Origin: Fidelibacterota bacterium
GTDB taxonomy: Bacteria; Fidelibacterota; Marinisomatia; Marinisomatales; TCS55
DNA length: 64,000 bases
Assembly: GCA_046861385.1 (NCBI GenBank)
Contig: JBHHTW010000006.1
Coordinates: forward strand, 29,801-93,800
Direction: 5' to 3'
Numbering within the stretch: position 1 is the stretch's first letter; the number at the start of each line of letters is the position of its first letter. This document shows positions 4,847 through 30,353 of this stretch, one piece after another. Under the pieces are notes generated by a model. It was not told where the DNA came from. It saw only the letters and a list, made by a program, of their open reading frames with translations, and ran no database searches. A program made the position numbers and the translations under genes.

Positions 4847-5681
4847 AGTTATCTATAAAAAAAGCCAGTAATCCTGCAATTGTACTGAATTTTAATACCT
4901 CGGAAAATCGTTTTGCCTGTTTAATTTCAGGCGATTTCAGAAACGAAAATACGATCATTGCCAATGGTATTTCCACACCTAAAACAAGAATAATCAAATA
5001 TAAGAGTCCATAATATCCCAAGATAAAGGGAATCGGTGATCCCAGCCCAATAATAAATGCAGCGGTGATGGTAATGTAACCTGATTTACGCATTCCAAAT
5101 TTTACAGGAAACGTGTTCAGTCCGGCTTTTGTATCTCCTTCAATGTCCGCCATATCTTTTACGAGTTCCCGGACAAATGTGAGTCCAAATGCTAATAGTG
5201 CAGGAATAATCATCGGTTCTATATTATTAAAGGCTGCCCCGGCAAAAATAAATGCTAATCCCAAAATCAATGCTATTGATGCATTTCCTATTAAGGGTGT
5301 TCCTTTCAGGCTCCCACTGTAAATAATCATAATAGGCATTGAAATTCCGATAGCGATGACACGAGCAATCATTGGTAAACCAAAAGCGAATATACTCCCA
5401 GCCACAAAAAGAATAACAGCCAAGGACATGGCTGTTTTAATTTTTACATGCCCCGTAACCAAAGGTCGTTTGGGCCGATTTACTGTATCTGCTTTGTAAT
5501 CTTTTACATCGTTGTATGCATTGGCAGCGGCATTGTAACACACCACAACACCAATCGTTATTAACAATGTTTTCGTTTCATAAAAACTATCTAATATACC
5601 AGCGCTGACTACCATAGCAAACCCACTGGTCAATAAATTCAACGGACGCAATAGTTGAATATGCCACCAGATAAAATTCAT
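4836..5681 (-). CDS. UbiA-family prenyltransferase, DGGGP synthase-like
   Basis: LLRPLN, NDVKDYKADTVNRPKRPL, RELVKDMADIEGD, TFPV; multiple TM helices. Confidence 0.85.
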   Translation of the reverse strand: MNFIWWHIQLLRPLNLLTSGFAMVVSAGILDSFYETKTLLITIGVVVCYNAAANAYNDVKDYKADTVNRPKRPLVTGHVKIKTAMSLAVILFVAGSIFAFGLPMIARVIAIGISMPIMIIYSGSLKGTPLIGNASIALILGLAFIFAGAAFNNIEPMIIPALLAFGLTFVRELVKDMADIEGDTKAGLNTFPVKFGMRKSGYITITAAFIIGLGSPIPFILGYYGLLYLIILVLGVEIPLAMIVFSFLKSPEIKQAKRFSEVLKFSTIAGLLAFFIDNYVN

Positions 5682-6541
5682 TTTACCTGCACTTTTAATA
5701 TTCGACTATCTCCATTAAAATCAGATATAAATTTTATTTGTTCAAAATCATTGGTTTGAAAATATTCACCTGCTTTTTGGGGATGATCCTCGAGACCAAC
5801 TTCCATAATCAGCCAGCCATTGGGACGGACCCATTTCTTCGCTTCCTTGGCTAAATGTCTATAAAATGTGAGACCGTCACGATGATCTGTAAGCGCCTGA
5901 TGGGGTTCATACCCTCGAACTTCCTTCATGATAGTATCCATTTCATCTTGGGGAATATACGGTGGGTTCATCAGTAACCCATTATAGATCGGTTCCAAAG
6001 GATGATAATTTAAAAAATCAGATTCATTGAATTTCACGTTTGATACTTTATTCAATGCTGCATTCTCTTCTGCGATTGCCAAACTTTTTAATGAGATATC
6101 TAATCCGTCTAATATTGAATGGAATAATTCGGCAGCAACTGATATAGCTATACATCCTGATCCGGTTCCAATATCAACCAATCGTGGATGTTCAAATTCT
6201 TGAAATGTATAGAGGGCAACATCTACCAAACGTTCTGTTTCCTGTCTGGGGATTAATACGTCTTTGGTCACCTTAAATCGTCTTCCGTAAAATTCTGTCC
6301 ATCCGGTGATATATTGCGCCGGTTCGCCGGATGAGCGTCTTTTAACCCATTGTTTAAAAATAATCTCTTGTTCTTTGGAAATCTGAAAATCGATTAACTG
6401 AAGTTCTGAAAGTTTACAATTAAGTAGTGAGGATAAAAGCCATTTTGCCTCTTGTTGTGGATCATCAACATGTGACGACAATTGATTCGCTGACCAATCC
6501 AGCCAATATTTGATTTGATTGTCTATTGGAACCGGGACCAT
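5678..6541 (-). CDS. prmC: Release factor glutamine methyltransferase
   Basis: GEPAQYI, LIPRQETE, DIGTGSG, NPPY; directly downstream of prfA. Confidence 0.95.
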   Translation of the reverse strand: MVPVPIDNQIKYWLDWSANQLSSHVDDPQQEAKWLLSSLLNCKLSELQLIDFQISKEQEIIFKQWVKRRSSGEPAQYITGWTEFYGRRFKVTKDVLIPRQETERLVDVALYTFQEFEHPRLVDIGTGSGCIAISVAAELFHSILDGLDISLKSLAIAEENAALNKVSNVKFNESDFLNYHPLEPIYNGLLMNPPYIPQDEMDTIMKEVRGYEPHQALTDHRDGLTFYRHLAKEAKKWVRPNGWLIMEVGLEDHPQKAGEYFQTNDFEQIKFISDFNGDSRILKVQVK

Positions 6542-7602
6542 CAGTCCCCCGCTAATAGCTCCTGTTGTTCTGCAAGTTTTAATTGCTCAATCAGTTCTTT
6601 AATATTGCCATTCAATACTTCTTCCAAATTATACGCTGTATAATTGATTCGATGATCTGTAATTCGTCCTTGTGAATAATTATATGTACGGATTTTTGCC
6701 GAACGGTCGCCCGTGGATACCATAGATTTCCGGACATCAGCCCTCTCTTGCGCCAACCGCTCTTGTTCTTGCGCCAATAATCTTGAACGCAACACTTTCA
6801 TTGCCAATAAACGATTTTGATGCTGAGATTTTTCATCCTGGCATGATACAACCAAACCCGATGGCAGATGGGTAATGCGTATGGCAGATTCTGTTTTATT
6901 CACATGCTGACCACCCGCGCCACTGGCGCGGAAGGTATCAATTTTTAAGTCATTTTCATTAATCTCCACTTCTGCTTCTTCAGCTTCAGGCAAAACGGCT
7001 ACGGTGGCAGCTGATGTATGCACACGCCCGCCAGCTTCGGTCTTTGGAACACGCTGAACACGGTGTACACCGCTCTCATATTTCATAAATCCAAAGGCGC
7101 CTTTACCCGTGATGGAAAAAATGATTTCCTTATAACCACCAATTCCTGTTTCATTTACATTCATCACTTCGCTCAACCAATTGTTTCGTTCTGCATAGTG
7201 GGTATACATGCGATATAAGTCTGCTGCAAACAGAGCCGCTTCCTCGCCGCCGGTTCCCGCACGAATTTCAACTATCGTATTCTTATTATCATTTGGGTTT
7301 TTGGGCAACAACAATGTTTTAAGTTCTTCTTCTAATAATTTTTTCTGTCCCCTCAATTCAGACAATTCCTCCTGGGCAATCTCTTTCAGGTCTGTTTCAT
7401 CGCTTAATAGAATTTCTTCATCGTCTTCAATTTGTCGGATAACAGATAAATATTCTTCCCCCTTATTTACAATAGCAGATAATTGACTGTGTTCTTGGGC
7501 CGTTACTCGTAACATGTCTTGATTGGTCATCACAGCTGTTTCGGTTAATAACCGACCCAATTCATTATACCGGGCGATAACTTTTTCGATTTTATCCTTC
7601 AT
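6541..7602 (-). CDS. prfA: Peptide chain release factor 1
   Basis: [16 protein letters not shown] (PxT), GAGGQHVN. Confidence 0.97.
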
Positions 7603-8561
7603 TAGATAGCATCGGCCATATATTTTTTACCTGCCATTTTATTATATTGATCGCCAAAGGCATTTTTTAAGGCGGTAATCGCCACTTCAATCATATCATC
7701 ATCCGGCGGTTGAGTGGTAATCCTCTGCAGCCATAATCCTGGAGCCCTCAACGCATGAAAAAACAGATTTTTATCCTTACGAGCTGTGAGTTTAATAATT
7801 TCATAGGATACACCGGCAACGATTGGCATAAGGGGTAAATGAAATGCAATGCGATAAAATATGGTAATTTCGCCCATTATGGCTATAATGATTGTATCAA
7901 TCAAAGCAAAGACAAGGATAGCTGATAACAAAACAATGAAAAGGAAACTGGTTCCGCAACGAGGGTGGTAGGTTGGAAATGATTGGGCATTTTCAATAGT
8001 AACATTTTTCCCCGACTCAAAATTGAATACCACGCGGTGTTCTGCGCCATGATAGCGAAAAAGACGCTTCACATCTTTCATCATAGAAATAGCTAATAAA
8101 TACAAAATGAAAAATGAGATGCGAAAACACCCTGAAATCAAATTAAAAAATAAGGCATCTCTCTCTATATCCATTAACCATGTTGTAATCCACAAAGGAG
8201 CGACAACAAACATCCCAATCGCAAAGCCAATCGCAAATAACATTGAAAGTGAATTTGACAGTTTTCCGGGTTTTTTATCGGCTTCATCCGGCATGGCAAT
8301 ATCCGCGGACCATTGCAAAGTGGACATACCCATTTTCATAGATTCGAATAAAGCCATGATTCCCCTTAACACAGGCCATTTCCAGAAGGACGATGATTCC
8401 ACTTGAGAAATGAATGCATGTTTATCTATATGCATCTTACCCTCTGGATCACGTACAGCTGTAGCATATGCGCCCGGAACACGCATCATCACTCCTTCGA
8501 TGACGGCTTGCCCGCCAACAAGAATGGACGGTTTCATGAATGCGATTAGCAATTGTTTCAT
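7602..8561 (-). CDS. DUF1385 (YqhQ-like) membrane protein, putative metallopeptidase
   Basis: [25 protein letters not shown]; usual rpmE-DUF1385-prfA synteny; start uncertain (8567, 8561 or 8537). Confidence 0.9.
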
Positions 8562-8565
8562 AGAC

Positions 8566-8607
8566 AAAAAATTGGCTCCGTGCAGGAAATTCCTGTCTCC
8601 GGAGCCA
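8566..8607 (-). terminator. Intrinsic terminator-like hairpin after rpmE
   Basis: Minus strand TGGCTCCG...CGGAGCCA stem with inner CAGGAA/TTCCTG, followed by ATTTTTT. Confidence 0.55.
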
Positions 8608-8625
8608 TCATATGTTTATAATAAG

Positions 8626-8832
8626 TTACCGGGTGGTTTTAGCGTATTTCGCCTTAAACTTTTCGATACGTCCGGCTGTATCTACCAACTTTTGTTTTCC
8701 TGAGAAAAACGGGTGGCAAACCGAACAGATATCAAGACGCTGATCTCCAACAGTACTGTACACTTCGAATGAATGACCGCAAGCGCAATGTACTTTGCCA
8801 AGTTTATATTCGGGATGGATTCCCTGTTTCAT
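8626..8832 (-). CDS. rpmE: 50S ribosomal protein L31 (Zn-binding type)
   Basis: [27 protein letters not shown]. Confidence 0.97.
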
Positions 8833-8846
8833 AATAAAACTCCTTA

Positions 8847-10055
8847 TTAATTCAATTGTTTTAATGCGTATGCTACTTTGGATATGCCTCTTCGAATTGT
8901 ATCCCTATCCGTAGCGCACGAAAATCTTATATGCCCTGGCGCTCCGAAACCGTCCCCGGGAACGGTCACCACAGACCCAGAATTTAATATATATCCACTC
9001 AGATCGAAAGAATCCTGAATAATTTTACCATTGATCTTTTTTCCGATATAATGAGACATATTTGGAAATGTATAAAATGCGCCACCGGGGATTGCACAGG
9101 AAACGCCAGGAATTTCATTCAATAAACCCACCATTAAATCGCGGCGTTTTTTAAACTTCAACCTCATTTCCTCCACAGGTCGTTGATCACCGGTTAATGC
9201 TGCAATGGCAGCACGCTGACCTATGGAATTCGCACAGGATGTTGCCTGACCTTGAACCTTGCTCATGGCTTTAATGATCGCCTGCTCTCCCGCTGCATAT
9301 CCAATTCGCCAACCTGTCATGGCGTAGGTTTTTGAAAGACTCATACATGTGATTACTCTTGCGCCAATATTATGATCACGATTCAATTTTTCGGCGCTGA
9401 TAAATCCTCCATCAAAAATCAGTCGTTCATAACATTCGTCTGAAATCACAGTCCAATCACGGTTTGCTGCAATATTTAACAGCCTCATTAGTGCTTCCGA
9501 GCTCCACACTCCCCCGGTTGGATTAGATGGGGAATTAACAATGACACCTTTAATATTTTCCGTGGTTTTCTTTTCCAAATCATTGAAATCTACTTCAAAT
9601 TGCTTTTGGGAAAGCGTATTTACGATGATGGGTTCAGCATCTGCCAACCGTACAAATTCAGGAAACGATACCCAGTACGGTGTAAAAATAACCACTTCAT
9701 CACCTTGATCAAATAAAACTTGACAGGCGTTGTACAGGCTTTGTTTTTCACCATTTGAAACCAGAATTTCGTTTGGAATATATTCCAAACCGTTTTCCCT
9801 TTTTAATTTCTCACAAATCGCCTGGCGGAGTTCAATCATGCCGGAGCCAGCTGTATACTTTGTATATCCGTCGTCCATTGCTTTTTTCCCAGCCTCGATG
9901 ATATGATCCGGTGTATTAAAATCGGGCTCTCCTACGCTGAAGTTGATTACGTCAATGCCTTGAAATCGCATTTCAGCTGCCTTTGAAGCCATTTCCAGAG
10001 TATACGAAGGCTTCACCCGTGAAACGCGTTTTGCGAACTTGAGTTGAGATGTCAT
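8847..10055 (-). CDS. PLP-dependent aminotransferase class I (aspartate aminotransferase-like)
   Basis: [33 protein letters not shown]. Confidence 0.93.
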
Positions 10056-11144
10056 TTATAATTTATGCTGTTTTTTATGAAATTCAGGACTGTTGAATTT
10101 TGCATCTTCAGGACTGGCGTTGTCTGATACATCTATTTCAGAAAACGAATCATCTGTTTCTATCTCAAATTCTTCAGATAGTACTTTTTTACTGCTCTTC
10201 CTAACCGGTTTTTTCGTGGGCTTTCTCACGTTTTTTTTCACCGTCTTTTTTCCCGGTTTTTTAATTGGCTTTTCGTCTAGTTTTTCATCTTTTTCTTTAT
10301 CTTGTTTTTTGTTAGTCGTTTCCTTTTTAACTCTATTTCGTTTTGGTTTCGGAACATCTTTCATCGAGACACCTTCGAGATCAGACTCCGCATAAGCAAT
10401 TTGTGCCTCGGCTTCTTTTTTCTCAACATTTTCGTCTAATTCTTCCAGATCGAATTGAAAGGACTTTGGGTTAAACATACCATATAGTGCTCCATAACCG
10501 CGCGTAATTCCATTTCCAATTCCCATATAATTCGGGAGGAGAAAGTTGGTTCGAAATTCACCGGAAAATGCTCCCCAGAAACGTTCATCAACTGGTTTTG
10601 GAAACATGGAGGTTAGGTTCACTTTTGTAAAGATTTTGTCAGTGATCTCAACTCCCATTTCACGGGCAAGAAATACAATGTTTTGTCCCAAAAGCCGATT
10701 CAGAAATGATATACGTTCCATATTATTCAAGAAACGATAGCGACTGCCTGTGGTTTGATTTAACGCTACCCAGGGGGTCAGAAATCGATACCTGATTAAT
10801 CTGTCCACTTGTCTAAAGTGATCTGAGTTGGATACCACATCTGTATCAAACACCTGAAATGTAATATTGCCAAAGTCCAATATGTCGAGTCTGTCTGCTA
10901 ATTCTATAACAGGATCCACTCCTTCATGGATTCCGACAATATATATTTGCTCATTCAGGATTTTTACTTGCACCCGGGGGTAAAGAAATTGATCCCGGTA
11001 TGTACCATCCATCATTGAAATTACTTCCAAATCAGGATATTGACGCATAAAGACACCTTTAACCTGATATGGCGTCTTTCTGACTGGCTTATCCGTTAAA
11101 ACACGAACAGTAACTGTGCGCACCTCACTGTTACTATATTCCAT
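10056..11144 (-). CDS. cas6: Stand-alone Cas6 (Cas6b-like RAMP) protein with long charged C-terminal tail
   Basis: YPRVQVK, YRFLTPWVALNQ, FSGEFRTNFLLPNY and C-terminal G-loop GIGNGITRGYG (GhGxxxxxGhG); SD GAGGTG at 11150-11155; stop abuts next ATG (TAAATG). Confidence 0.82.
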   Translation of the reverse strand: MEYSNSEVRTVTVRVLTDKPVRKTPYQVKGVFMRQYPDLEVISMMDGTYRDQFLYPRVQVKILNEQIYIVGIHEGVDPVIELADRLDILDFGNITFQVFDTDVVSNSDHFRQVDRLIRYRFLTPWVALNQTTGSRYRFLNNMERISFLNRLLGQNIVFLAREMGVEITDKIFTKVNLTSMFPKPVDERFWGAFSGEFRTNFLLPNYMGIGNGITRGYGALYGMFNPKSFQFDLEELDENVEKKEAEAQIAYAESDLEGVSMKDVPKPKRNRVKKETTNKKQDKEKDEKLDEKPIKKPGKKTVKKNVRKPTKKPVRKSSKKVLSEEFEIETDDSFSEIDVSDNASPEDAKFNSPEFHKKQHKL

Positions 11145-11170
11145 ATTTACACCTCATTAGTTAGTTATAA

Positions 11171-11194
11171 TAAAAGGACTGCACCTTTAGCAGT
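11171..11194 (-). terminator. Small hairpin with short U-tract between rho and cas6
   Basis: Minus strand ACTGC-TAAAGGT-GCAGT then CCTTTTA; weak. Confidence 0.35.
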
Positions 11195-11203
11195 AAGTTA
11201 CAT

Positions 11204-12451
11204 TTATTGATTCATAGTTTCCATAAATTCTTCATTGCTCTTTGTCCGCTTCATTCTTGTATGCATAAACTCCATTGCTTCAATAACGTTCATTTCATTT
11301 AAGAGTTTCCTTAAAATCCACATTCTTCCAAGTGTCTTTTTATCCAGGAGCAATTCTTCTTTTCTTGTCCCGGAACGCACAATATCAAACGACGGGTATA
11401 TACGACGGTCACTTAGGCGGCGGTCTAAAACAAGTTCCATATTACCTGTTCCTTTAAACTCCTCAAAAATGACTTCATCCATCCTGCTTCCTGTGTCGAT
11501 CAAGGCGGTGGCAATAATTGATAAACTTCCACTTTCTTCAGTGTTTCTTGCTGCACCAAAAAATTGTTTCGGTTTTTTTAAAGCATTGGAATCAACACCA
11601 CCAGATAAAATTTTACCACTGTGTGGAATGACTGCGTTGTGAGCACGCCCTAGGCGTGTAAGGCTATCAAGTAATATGACTACATCATGGCCATATTCTA
11701 CCATGCGCCTTGCTTTTTGCAAAACCATATCTGCAACGGCAACGTGACGTTCGGGTGGTTCATCAAAAGTAGAGCTCACCACTTCTGCATCGACATGTTG
11801 TTTCATATCTGTTACTTCTTCCGGGCGTTCATCAATTAATAGGATAATTAATTTGATTTCCGGATGATTATTCAATAATGAATTAGCGATTTTTTGCAGC
11901 AGAACTGTTTTTCCTGTCTTTGGTTGAGCTACAATCAATCCTCGCTGTCCTTTCCCAATAGGAGAAATTAAATCCATAATCCTGGTTGATAAATCCTTTG
12001 GATCCGTTTCCAGGTTGAATTTTTTATCTGGATATTTTGGTGTTAGATTATCAAACAAGATTCCTTTTTTAACTTGATCCGGCGATTCGTCATTCACCGT
12101 TTCCAGTTTCAGCAGCGCGTAAAACCTTTCTTTTTCTTTTGGCTTTCGAATTTGCCCATAAACAGAATGTCCTGTTTTTAAACCGAAACGCTTAATTTGC
12201 GACGGACTCACATAAATATCATCCTGACCCGGTAAATAGTTATAATCAGGGCTTCTTAAAAAGCCGTAACCTTCGTTCAATACTTCCAGAACTCCTCTGG
12301 CGTGTAAAACGCCTTCTTTCTCGTTTTGTGCTTCAAGAACTTTAATAATTAATCCCTGCTTATTCAAGCCGGAAGAGCCCTGGATCTTTAAATCCTGAGC
12401 CAATTTTACCAGTTCTTTAATATTTAGGGATTGTAGTTGATTAACATCCAT
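11204..12451 (-). CDS. rho: Transcription termination factor Rho
   Basis: [43 protein letters not shown]. Confidence 0.98.
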
Positions 12452-27931: not shown

Positions 27932-29586
<1,655 letters not shown>

Positions 29587-29595
<9 letters not shown>

Positions 29596-29656
29596 TTAAT
29601 GGTAACTGGTGAGTGGTAACTGGTGAGTGGTAACTGGTGAGTGGTAACTGGTGGGT
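29587..29656 (+). repeat. Heptamer tandem repeat, (GGTAACT-GGTGAGT)n
   Basis: Ten consecutive 7-mers, including three perfect 14-bp units at 29601-29642. Confidence 0.9.
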
Positions 29657-29774
29657 TGTGGAGCGCCAGCCCGCCGTGGCGGTGGGACTTGGCAATGAGA
29701 GCTTATACCCCAAAATCTGCCTGGAAGACAATGGGGAATTAAAATACAATGGTTAATATGAAATGTTTAATCAT

Positions 29775-30353
29775 TTAAAATCCGAGGTTATAATATATTC
29801 TGTCCCCGCCCATTTTACCGGTACAGATTAGTTCAACATTTTTTGGTTTTGATTTGAAATCGTAGATTAATTCTGCTGTGACTGATTTTGTTGGTTTAAT
29901 AATAGCCAAGTCCTGATATTTTCCTTCAAAGGGATTTAACTCGCCCTTGTTTTCTCCATTGCCAATCACTTTCAACAAAGCCATGGCTGAAAAATCCAAA
30001 TCCTTTGTGGGGTGAATGTTTGTCACTCGCAGCGAAACGGTTACTCTATTTCCATTGCGGGCCGCTTCCAGGAGATTGTATTTCCCGTGGTCAGCAATCT
30101 GCTCAACTCCGACAGGATGAGACACCCTTCCTTCTTTCAAGGATTCAATTGGAATATAAAATTCAATGGTCGCTTTAATAAACTTCCCTGACTTATCTTT
30201 TTTCAGTTTTACAACTTTTGTCCCCGGATATAATTGCCCGACCTGATTATTTTTTGATTCATCCCGGGAAGAATAAATCTTGGTATTTTTAATTGTTTCT
30301 GTTTCCTGGGCAAAAATGAGAAGAGGTAATAGTAAAGAAAATAAAAATTTCAT
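29775..30353 (-). CDS. Secreted protein, possible SH3-like + DUF4352-like Ig domain
   Basis: Signal peptide MKFLFSLLLPLLIFA; VGQLYPGTKV (SH3b-like); VTVSLRVTN...IKPTKSVTAELIYD. Confidence 0.5.
   Translation of the reverse strand: MKFLFSLLLPLLIFAQETETIKNTKIYSSRDESKNNQVGQLYPGTKVVKLKKDKSGKFIKATIEFYIPIESLKEGRVSHPVGVEQIADHGKYNLLEAARNGNRVTVSLRVTNIHPTKDLDFSAMALLKVIGNGENKGELNPFEGKYQDLAIIKPTKSVTAELIYDFKSKPKNVELICTGKMGGDRIYYNLGF

Follow-up and report, generated by a model that had tools for sequence, protein, structure and literature searches.

A Cas6b-fold protein lacking the catalytic histidines is encoded behind rho in Fidelibacterota and is very probably a domesticated, CRISPR-independent derivative

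Introduction

What does a protein that resembles the CRISPR-associated endoribonuclease Cas6 do in a row of housekeeping genes? The question is raised by a gene, here called cas6L, on the minus strand of a 64,000-nucleotide (nt) stretch of DNA from a Fidelibacterota bacterium (assembly GCA_046861385.1, contig JBHHTW010000006.1, positions 29,801 to 93,800; the whole of this stretch is called the window below). The gene follows directly behind rho, which encodes the transcription termination factor Rho. A first-pass annotation of the window, made from the sequence and its translations, took cas6L for a domesticated Cas6 that acts independently of CRISPR (short palindromic repeats that are clustered and regularly interspaced) on host RNA, in processing, termination or translation control, and that is possibly inherited vertically.

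The analysis described here shows that cas6L is a genuine Cas6b-fold protein and that it does not function as a component of a CRISPR system. It is very probably a domesticated, CRISPR-independent derivative of Cas6b. The fuller statement, namely that this domesticated descendant acts as a non-cleaving RNA-binding protein, has about an even chance of being correct, and is weighed below against several alternatives.

A Cas6b fold that has lost its catalytic histidines

The resemblance of cas6L to Cas6b goes beyond chance, because matches to Pfam, to PADLOC, to Protein Data Bank (PDB) sequences and to known folds all agree. Both Cas6b domains are recognized above the Pfam cut-offs (Table 1), the PADLOC models that match the protein are Cas6 (3.8e-41) and Cas6b (2.1e-39), and a phmmer search of PDB sequences matches the Cas6b of Methanococcus maripaludis (4z7k/4z7l; E 3e-28); no family match was found in NCBIfam. 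An AlphaFold2 model of residues 1-230, based on a 92-row alignment, has a mean predicted local distance difference test score (pLDDT) of 94.6 and a predicted template modelling (TM) score of 0.90. A comparison of a predicted structure with those of known Cas6 proteins had been proposed at the outset, and the best Foldseek match of the model is 4z7k_A (E 7.7e-20, TM 0.77/0.81, 27% identity), and the other matches listed are all Cas6 proteins or effector complexes that contain one. The tandem ferredoxin-like fold of the RAMP (repeat-associated mysterious protein) group is therefore present. So are the four sequence motifs on which the initial identification was based, which occupy residues 55-61 (YPRVQVK), 121-130 (FLTPWVALNQ), 193-206 (FSGEFRTNFLLPNY) and 208-218 (the glycine-rich loop, GIGNGITRGYG) of the translation.

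The same motifs had been read as typical of a RAMP nuclease, and this reading was only partly right: the Cas6b motifs and fold are real, but the loss of the two catalytic histidines from the whole rho-linked clade had been overlooked. In the study by Richter et al. (2012; PMC3479195), H38 and H40 of M. maripaludis Cas6b are described as complementing each other, with the double mutant H38A/H40A being nearly inactive, and Y47 as contributing to activity. In the phmmer alignment, H38-N39-H40 faces S43-M44 and a gap in cas6L, and Y47 aligns with Phe53; Tyr55, which is nearly invariant, is at the position of Y49.

The loss is a property of the group as a whole. In a 98-row alignment consisting of 63 canonical Cas6b rows and 35 rows of the rho-linked clade, the H38 and H40 columns hold histidine in 58/63 and 59/63 canonical rows but in 0/35 of the clade, which has mostly Pro/Ser in the first and Leu/Ile/Met in the second. 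Among 80 loci from named species (see below), the loop contains no H-x-H at all (0/80). Two further changes mark the clade: a lysine of the glycine-rich loop, found in 57/63 canonical rows, is replaced by asparagine in 32/35 clade rows, and a serine (54/63 canonical) is replaced by phenylalanine (32/35). Basic residues at other positions (K19, K23, K29, R50, R57 and K61) are invariant in the clade.

Most carriers of cas6L have no CRISPR system

The host assembly (genome G000), which is 97.85% complete and comprises 2.43 Mb spread over 104 contigs, shows no sign of a CRISPR system. Tandem Repeats Finder returned three rows for the window, none of them array-like, and a k-mer chain finder, with each candidate inspected by eye, detected no CRISPR array in the whole assembly. 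Of the CRISPR-like repeats at contig ends, that on contig C17 proved to be a plain 77-bp tandem repeat, and those on C27, C56, C80, C91 and C96 were two-copy or coding repeats. Family searches of the host genome found no Cas1, Cas2, type III RAMP or Cas7/DevR above cut-off, the helicase matches to cas3_core were all below threshold, and the single match to Cas6b_C was cas6L itself. The initial impression that no array or other cas gene lies near cas6L therefore extends from its vicinity to the entire genome.

Assembly from metagenomes frequently loses CRISPR arrays, and a wider count of genomes therefore matters more than the result from any one assembly. In a phylum-wide sample of 401 genomes, the cas6L protein was matched in 224 and Cas1 in 62; a profile query built from the most divergent members raised the first figure to 225/401 and left the family tallies unchanged. 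Within the order to which the window belongs (families f1-f16; n=213, the host genome G000 excluded), 170/213 genomes have cas6L and 15/213 have Cas1. All 15 of the latter also carry cas6L, and so 155/170 carriers in the order show no Cas1, which was one of the checks suggested with the original proposal and bears out the independence from CRISPR that it claimed. Genome G051 has both kinds of gene, a rho-linked copy without the histidines and, elsewhere, a separate canonical Cas6b with the H-N-H loop.

Linkage to rho, descent and constraint

The minus-strand gene row of the window reads folC, rho, cas6L, class I/II aminotransferase, rpmE, DUF1385, prfA, prmC, in agreement with the rho-aminotransferase-rpmE-prfA row described originally. 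The genes that we take to be rpmE, prfA and prmC were named from their translations, and were used as tblastn queries. Both junctions of cas6L are as first reported: a strong Shine-Dalgarno (SD) sequence, GAGGTG (11155-11150), lies 5 nt ahead of the ATG, and the TAA stop directly abuts the ATG of the aminotransferase gene.

The position behind rho is conserved wherever it was examined. A survey of the synteny had been recommended, and rho proved to be the gene immediately upstream, with the same orientation, in 11/11 loci from the window's own order (two of which run into a contig end on the downstream side) and in 5/5 loci from other families and classes of the phylum. A one-genome-per-species scan uncovered 212 stretches that encode a relative, of which 80 were kept for the figures on named loci; these carry names of this phylum or uninformative ones ("uncultured bacterium", "FCB group bacterium", "bacterium TMED46"). 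An automatic rule placed rho directly upstream in 79/80. In the remaining locus (L073), masked bases (a run of N) interrupt rho, the last piece of which ends 60 nt before cas6L, and so the count becomes 80/80, or 96/96 when the 16 loci from relatives are included. The aminotransferase gene follows in 75/80 named loci; three have another gene, and the stretch is too short in two. In genome G051, the rho-linked locus (L020) has a gene for a membrane protein after cas6L in place of the aminotransferase gene, and the separate canonical H-N-H Cas6b (L023) lies beside a large open reading frame (ORF).

The spacers between rho and cas6L in the 80 other species are short and AT-rich, some being less than 35 nt in their entirety, and the median distance between the aligned ends of the two genes is 56 nt. 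Such short spacers favor the production of rho and cas6L from one transcript.

Named homologs come from Candidatus Marinimicrobia / Neomarinimicrobiota / Fidelibacterota (SAR406) and are labeled "hypothetical protein" or "CRISPR-associated endonuclease Cas6"; the cultured Fidelibacter multiformis carries a short member of the clade, of 231 amino acids. The gene is present in 39/41 genomes of relatives. With both the protein and the profile query, it was not found in families f12 (0/37; genomes of about 1 Mb), f17 (0/38) and f30 (0/9), nor in f18, f20 and most of f24, f26 and f28. The matches that do occur in f28 have weaker E-values, typical of canonical Cas6b, and 7/9 of the matching genomes also have Cas1. 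Three f12 genomes (L024-L026) have the gene order folC, rho, aminotransferase, rpmE, from which cas6L is cleanly missing. In two of these three streamlined genomes, the alignment of Rho with its counterpart in the window does not begin until residue 48-51, which indicates a different N-terminus.

An IQ-TREE quick tree (98 rows, 223 columns), with support values from the Shimodaira-Hasegawa-like approximate likelihood ratio test (SH-aLRT) only, unites all rho-linked forms in one clade of 35 rows (SH-aLRT 97). Within it, the sequences from the window's order (98) are nested in a group that includes families f19 and f21 of the same class (97), and the forms from other classes fall outside; the second copy in G051, encoded apart from rho and bearing H-N-H, groups with canonical Cas6b. 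The branching thus follows host relatedness, a comparison that had been suggested at the outset, and together with the conserved synteny it points to a single history: one old domestication, followed by vertical descent with several losses. Ratios of nonsynonymous to synonymous substitution rates (dN/dS) against five or six relatives, with pairs of saturated dS left as "na", lie at 0.014-0.030 in the Cas6 domain of cas6L and at 0.11-0.22 in its tail, compared with 0.014-0.026 in rho and 0.050-0.078 in the aminotransferase gene. The Cas6 domain is under constraint as tight as that on Rho, which is of housekeeping grade. Overall, the first-pass annotation was sound on the Cas6b fold, on CRISPR independence and on vertical descent, and missed the loss of the catalytic histidines when it called the motifs those of a nuclease.

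The disordered tail

In the window's order, the Cas6 domain is followed by a tail of 86-155 residues (median 133.5), with K+R making up 21% and D+E 19.5% of its composition in 126 homologs plus the query. Members from other classes are only 220-260 amino acids (aa) long and are without the tail. Within this variable, low-complexity region, the alignment reveals three conserved islands, DVPKPxR at 263-269, KKVLSEEFDIE at 319-329 and the C-terminal KFNSPEFHKKQHKL at 349-362. The last of these ends the protein in the form [KR]FN..x..H..QH.. in at least 120/126 homologs of 295 aa or longer, with three lacking it among the ends listed.

A full-length AlphaFold2 model gives most of the tail a pLDDT of less than 50. 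The C-terminal helices (345-361) are weak, at about 50-59, and there is a small rise to 61-71 around 255-270, with a short strand at 257-259 just ahead of DVPKPKR. As for docking of the histidine-bearing C-terminal peptide on the core, a tail modeled at such low confidence (mostly pLDDT <50) shows neither docking nor its absence.

Candidate RNA ligands and partners

A family of hairpins like repetitive extragenic palindromic (REP) elements was considered as a ligand. Genome G000 has 29 sites of the form CAGACA-N4-TGTCTG, against 0 for the reversed control; the hairpins are often extended to a stem of 10-12 bp and occur in tandem pairs 24 nt apart. The element is multi-copy (at least 8 sites per strand) in 7/41 genomes of relatives (the host's own genus, G018 and G040), and has one or more matches in 11/41. 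As a conserved ligand of cas6L the hairpin was rejected, since cas6L itself is present in 39/41 of the same genomes; the distribution suggests a mobile or recently spread element.

The spacer between rho and cas6L was also considered. In the near relatives (window 11145-11203 and L002-L012), the word AGGTG(T/C)AG (AGGTGTAG) occurs about 30-40 nt before the start of cas6L, apart from the SD sequence. It is found in only 6/80 named loci and was dismissed as a conserved element, and no k-mer is widely shared among the spacers of the 80 named loci. A predicted complex of Rho with cas6L scored 0.01 against a mark of 0.32, a result that counts neither for nor against binding.

What might cas6L do?

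The lost histidines, the housekeeping-like conservation, the place behind rho and the scarcity of CRISPR systems among the hosts together suggest that a CRISPR part has been recycled for core RNA work. In the model that we prefer, cas6L would bind a specific cellular RNA, recognized by sequence or structure, through the old surface for CRISPR RNA (crRNA), and would hold this ligand without cutting it, or cut it only very slowly. The protein would be produced from the same transcript as Rho, and might act in step with Rho on nascent or newly made cellular RNA, for example by marking or shielding particular transcripts or by chaperoning an RNA. In the window's order, the disordered tail, with its lysines and arginines, would add unspecific RNA affinity, and the three tail motifs, above all the C-terminal peptide, could dock a partner.

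Several points weigh against this model. By analogy with the Cas6 of Sulfolobus solfataricus (Sso1437), the loss of the histidines need not mean the loss of cleavage: this enzyme cuts its repeat although its active site lacks a histidine, and Lys25, Lys28, Lys51 and Arg231 are important for it (PMC3652601). The clade of cas6L likewise keeps its invariant lysines and arginines, which might serve in a similar way. The usual Cas6b lysine in the glycine-rich loop has become asparagine, which may have changed even the binding of RNA. The candidates examined, namely the REP-like hairpins and the elements of the rho-cas6L spacer, yielded no RNA ligand. The gene is also dispensable in some lineages, judging from its absence from f12, f17, f30 and others. 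Finally, co-transcription with rho is suggested by spacing alone, and a functional tie to Rho by gene order alone.

The possible tie to Rho is a separate part of the model, and we consider it doubtful at best. In its most specific form, cas6L would be a sequence-specific RNA-recognition cofactor of Rho: the surface that once bound crRNA would recognize a defined motif on nascent transcripts, and the C-terminal peptide or the core would recruit Rho to this site or block it there. This form is unlikely; if it were true, a protein that used to handle CRISPR RNA would have been co-opted, across a whole bacterial phylum, for the programmable control of transcription termination.

The first alternative is that cas6L is still an endoribonuclease, with lysine, arginine or tyrosine taking over from histidine, and that it processes a cellular RNA such as an operon transcript, the precursor of a stable RNA or a Rho-related leader. 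The example of S. solfataricus Cas6 speaks for such histidine-free cutting, as do the six invariant basic residues, which lie around the N-terminal domain, and the nearly invariant Tyr55. However, the relevant precedent from its own subfamily is the nearly inactive H38A/H40A mutant of Cas6b (PMC3479195), both positions are non-histidine in 35/35 clade rows, the tyrosine that contributes to activity in M. maripaludis is replaced by Phe53, and neither the REP-like hairpins nor the spacer yielded a candidate substrate. We therefore regard a surviving nuclease as somewhat unlikely. Because the histidines are gone from the clade, processing is probably the least likely of the three roles proposed for cas6L at the outset.

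A second alternative is that cas6L is an RNA chaperone associated with the ribosome or translation, in which the fold binds ribosomal RNA or another stable RNA and the tail resembles those of ribosomal proteins, the position behind rho being merely inherited operon structure. This would fit the presence of rpmE, prfA and prmC in the same row and the Lys/Arg-rich, disordered nature of the tail. The aminotransferase has no obvious role in RNA metabolism and yet belongs to the same conserved row, which argues that the row is not purely functional. On the other hand, the invariant neighbor is rho (all 96 loci) and not rpmE or prfA, the aminotransferase gene sits between cas6L and these two and is itself replaced in 3/80 named loci and in L020, and the tail is missing altogether from the short forms of other classes. 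A chaperone of this kind is quite unlikely.

The last alternative, in which cas6L is an ordinary Cas6b and matures, in trans, the crRNA of an array located elsewhere or left unassembled, could appeal to the automatic label "CRISPR-associated endonuclease Cas6" on some members, to the frequent loss of arrays from metagenome assemblies and to the Cas1 genes in 15/213 genomes of the order, but it is highly improbable and already contradicted by the genome counts: 155/170 carriers in the order show no Cas1, the host genome has neither a cas family match nor an array, the catalytic dyad is gone, CRISPR-bearing genomes hold a separate canonical copy, and in its dN/dS values and synteny cas6L matches a core gene and not a defense gene.

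Features of the locus and other sequence elements

The coordinates of the features discussed here are collected in Table 1.

Table 1. Features of the cas6L locus (window coordinates unless a contig of G000 is named)
Feature	Position	Strand	Details or evidence
cas6L gene, Cas6b-derived, 362 aa (Cas6 domain + disordered tail)	10056..11144	-	ORF list, Pfam, PADLOC, PDB match, fold
Cas6b N-terminal ferredoxin-like domain, residues 7-102	10839..11126	-	PF17955 Cas6b_N 40.1 bits (cut-off 25); pLDDT >90
Former catalytic loop S-M-M, residues 43-45, at H38-N39-H40 positions of M. maripaludis Cas6b	11010..11018	-	phmmer alignment to 4z7k
Cas6b C-terminal ferredoxin-like domain, residues 114-220	10485..10805	-	PF17262 Cas6b_C 85.3 bits (cut-off 39.4)
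Glycine-rich loop GIGNGITRGYG, residues 208-218	10491..10523	-	G208, G210, G216, G218 conserved
Tail, residues 221-362: an acidic part followed by a variable part rich in Lys/Arg; mostly disordered by prediction	10059..10484	-	composition; pLDDT mostly <50
Tail motif DVPKPKR, residues 263-269	10338..10358	-	alignment; P265 nearly invariant
Acidic tail motif KKVLSEEFEIE, residues 319-329	10158..10190	-	alignment; F326 nearly invariant
Extreme C-terminal peptide KFNSPEFHKKQHKL, residues 349-362	10059..10100	-	F350, N351, H356, Q359, H360 nearly invariant
Stop codon of cas6L	10056-10058		ORF
rho-cas6L spacer, 59 nt	11145..11203	-	SD GAGGTG 11155-11150; weak hairpin 11194-11178
rho (415 aa), for the transcription termination factor, next gene upstream	11204..12451	-	Rho_N, Rho_RNA_bind, ATP-synt_ab domains
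Class I/II aminotransferase, 402 aa, start abuts cas6L stop	8847..10055	-	PF00155, 2.7e-75
Rest of row, including rpmE (8626-8832)	5678..8832	-	ORF
DUF1385	7602-8567	-	Pfam
prfA	6541-7602	-	ORF
prmC	5678-6541	-	ORF
REP-like hairpin examples, outside window	C22:308-413; C54:2377-2416; C72:70011-70050		

Some other repeated elements were seen in the window and in genome G000. A perfect 14-nt tandem repeat of TGGTAACTGGTGAG (3.9 copies) lies at 29585-29653 of the window, inside its GC-richest 2-kb block (28001-30000; GC 0.439), which has a positive GC skew. Words related to this repeat (CACCAGTTACCACT...) recur elsewhere in G000, for example at C96:540-700. The start of contig C17 (positions 1-230) consists of three head-to-tail 77-bp GC-rich units, the contig as a whole having 45% GC against 39% for the genome. 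About 20 copies of the AT-rich word ATTACGTTTTA[AC]ATAATTA occur in G000, and these may be regulatory or linked to promoters.

Significance and comparison with known systems

Cas proteins outside immunity are known mainly as parts of multi-gene defense or transposon modules. If a single Cas6 has become a core gene, it would provide a clean example of a CRISPR component entering housekeeping RNA biology, in a phylum that ranks among the most abundant bacteria in the dark ocean. The protein also offers a naturally histidine-less Cas6b scaffold, and testing at the bench is possible because the cultured Fidelibacter multiformis has a member of the clade. On the practical side, the pipeline label "CRISPR-associated endonuclease Cas6" inflates CRISPR counts in the phylum. 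No published description of cas6L was found in the literature on Cas6 in connection with Marinimicrobia/SAR406, Rho or exaptation, a search that covered papers without their supplements.

The derived, non-adaptive CRISPR-Cas variants reviewed by Koonin and Makarova (2022; PMC8730458) include the Streptomyces I-E module with a STAND NTPase, the haloarchaeal HRAMP and Tn7-linked systems. Like cas6L, these are Cas or RAMP proteins that operate outside adaptive immunity. However, the variants described there are multi-gene modules, mostly linked to defense or to transposons, whereas cas6L is a single gene in a core housekeeping row; the Cas6/RAMP parts of the review name no solitary housekeeping Cas6.

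Sso1437 of S. solfataricus resembles cas6L in having no histidine near the active site. It is CRISPR-associated and cleaves the repeat 8 nt from the 3' end (PMC3652601), whereas the genome of cas6L contains no such repeat. The structural relationship of the two is distant, Sso1437 (3zfv) appearing in the list of Cas6 matches from Foldseek with TM 0.36/0.33.

The closest known relative in structure is the M. maripaludis Cas6b (PDB 4Z7K/4Z7L), the crRNA endoribonuclease of a subtype I-B system. Enzymes of the Cas6b kind cut repeat RNA 8 nt ahead of its 3' end in a metal-independent reaction. The two proteins have in common the two-domain ferredoxin-like fold, the motifs YP.VQ.K, TPW.ALN and F.G.F..NF.LP.Y, and the glycine-rich loop. 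They differ in that cas6L is without both catalytic histidines and has asparagine in place of the lysine in the glycine-rich loop, and in that it has no array or cas neighbor and occupies a fixed place behind rho. In addition, cas6L is strongly constrained and vertically inherited, and in the window's order it has acquired the 86-155-aa tail with its three conserved motifs.

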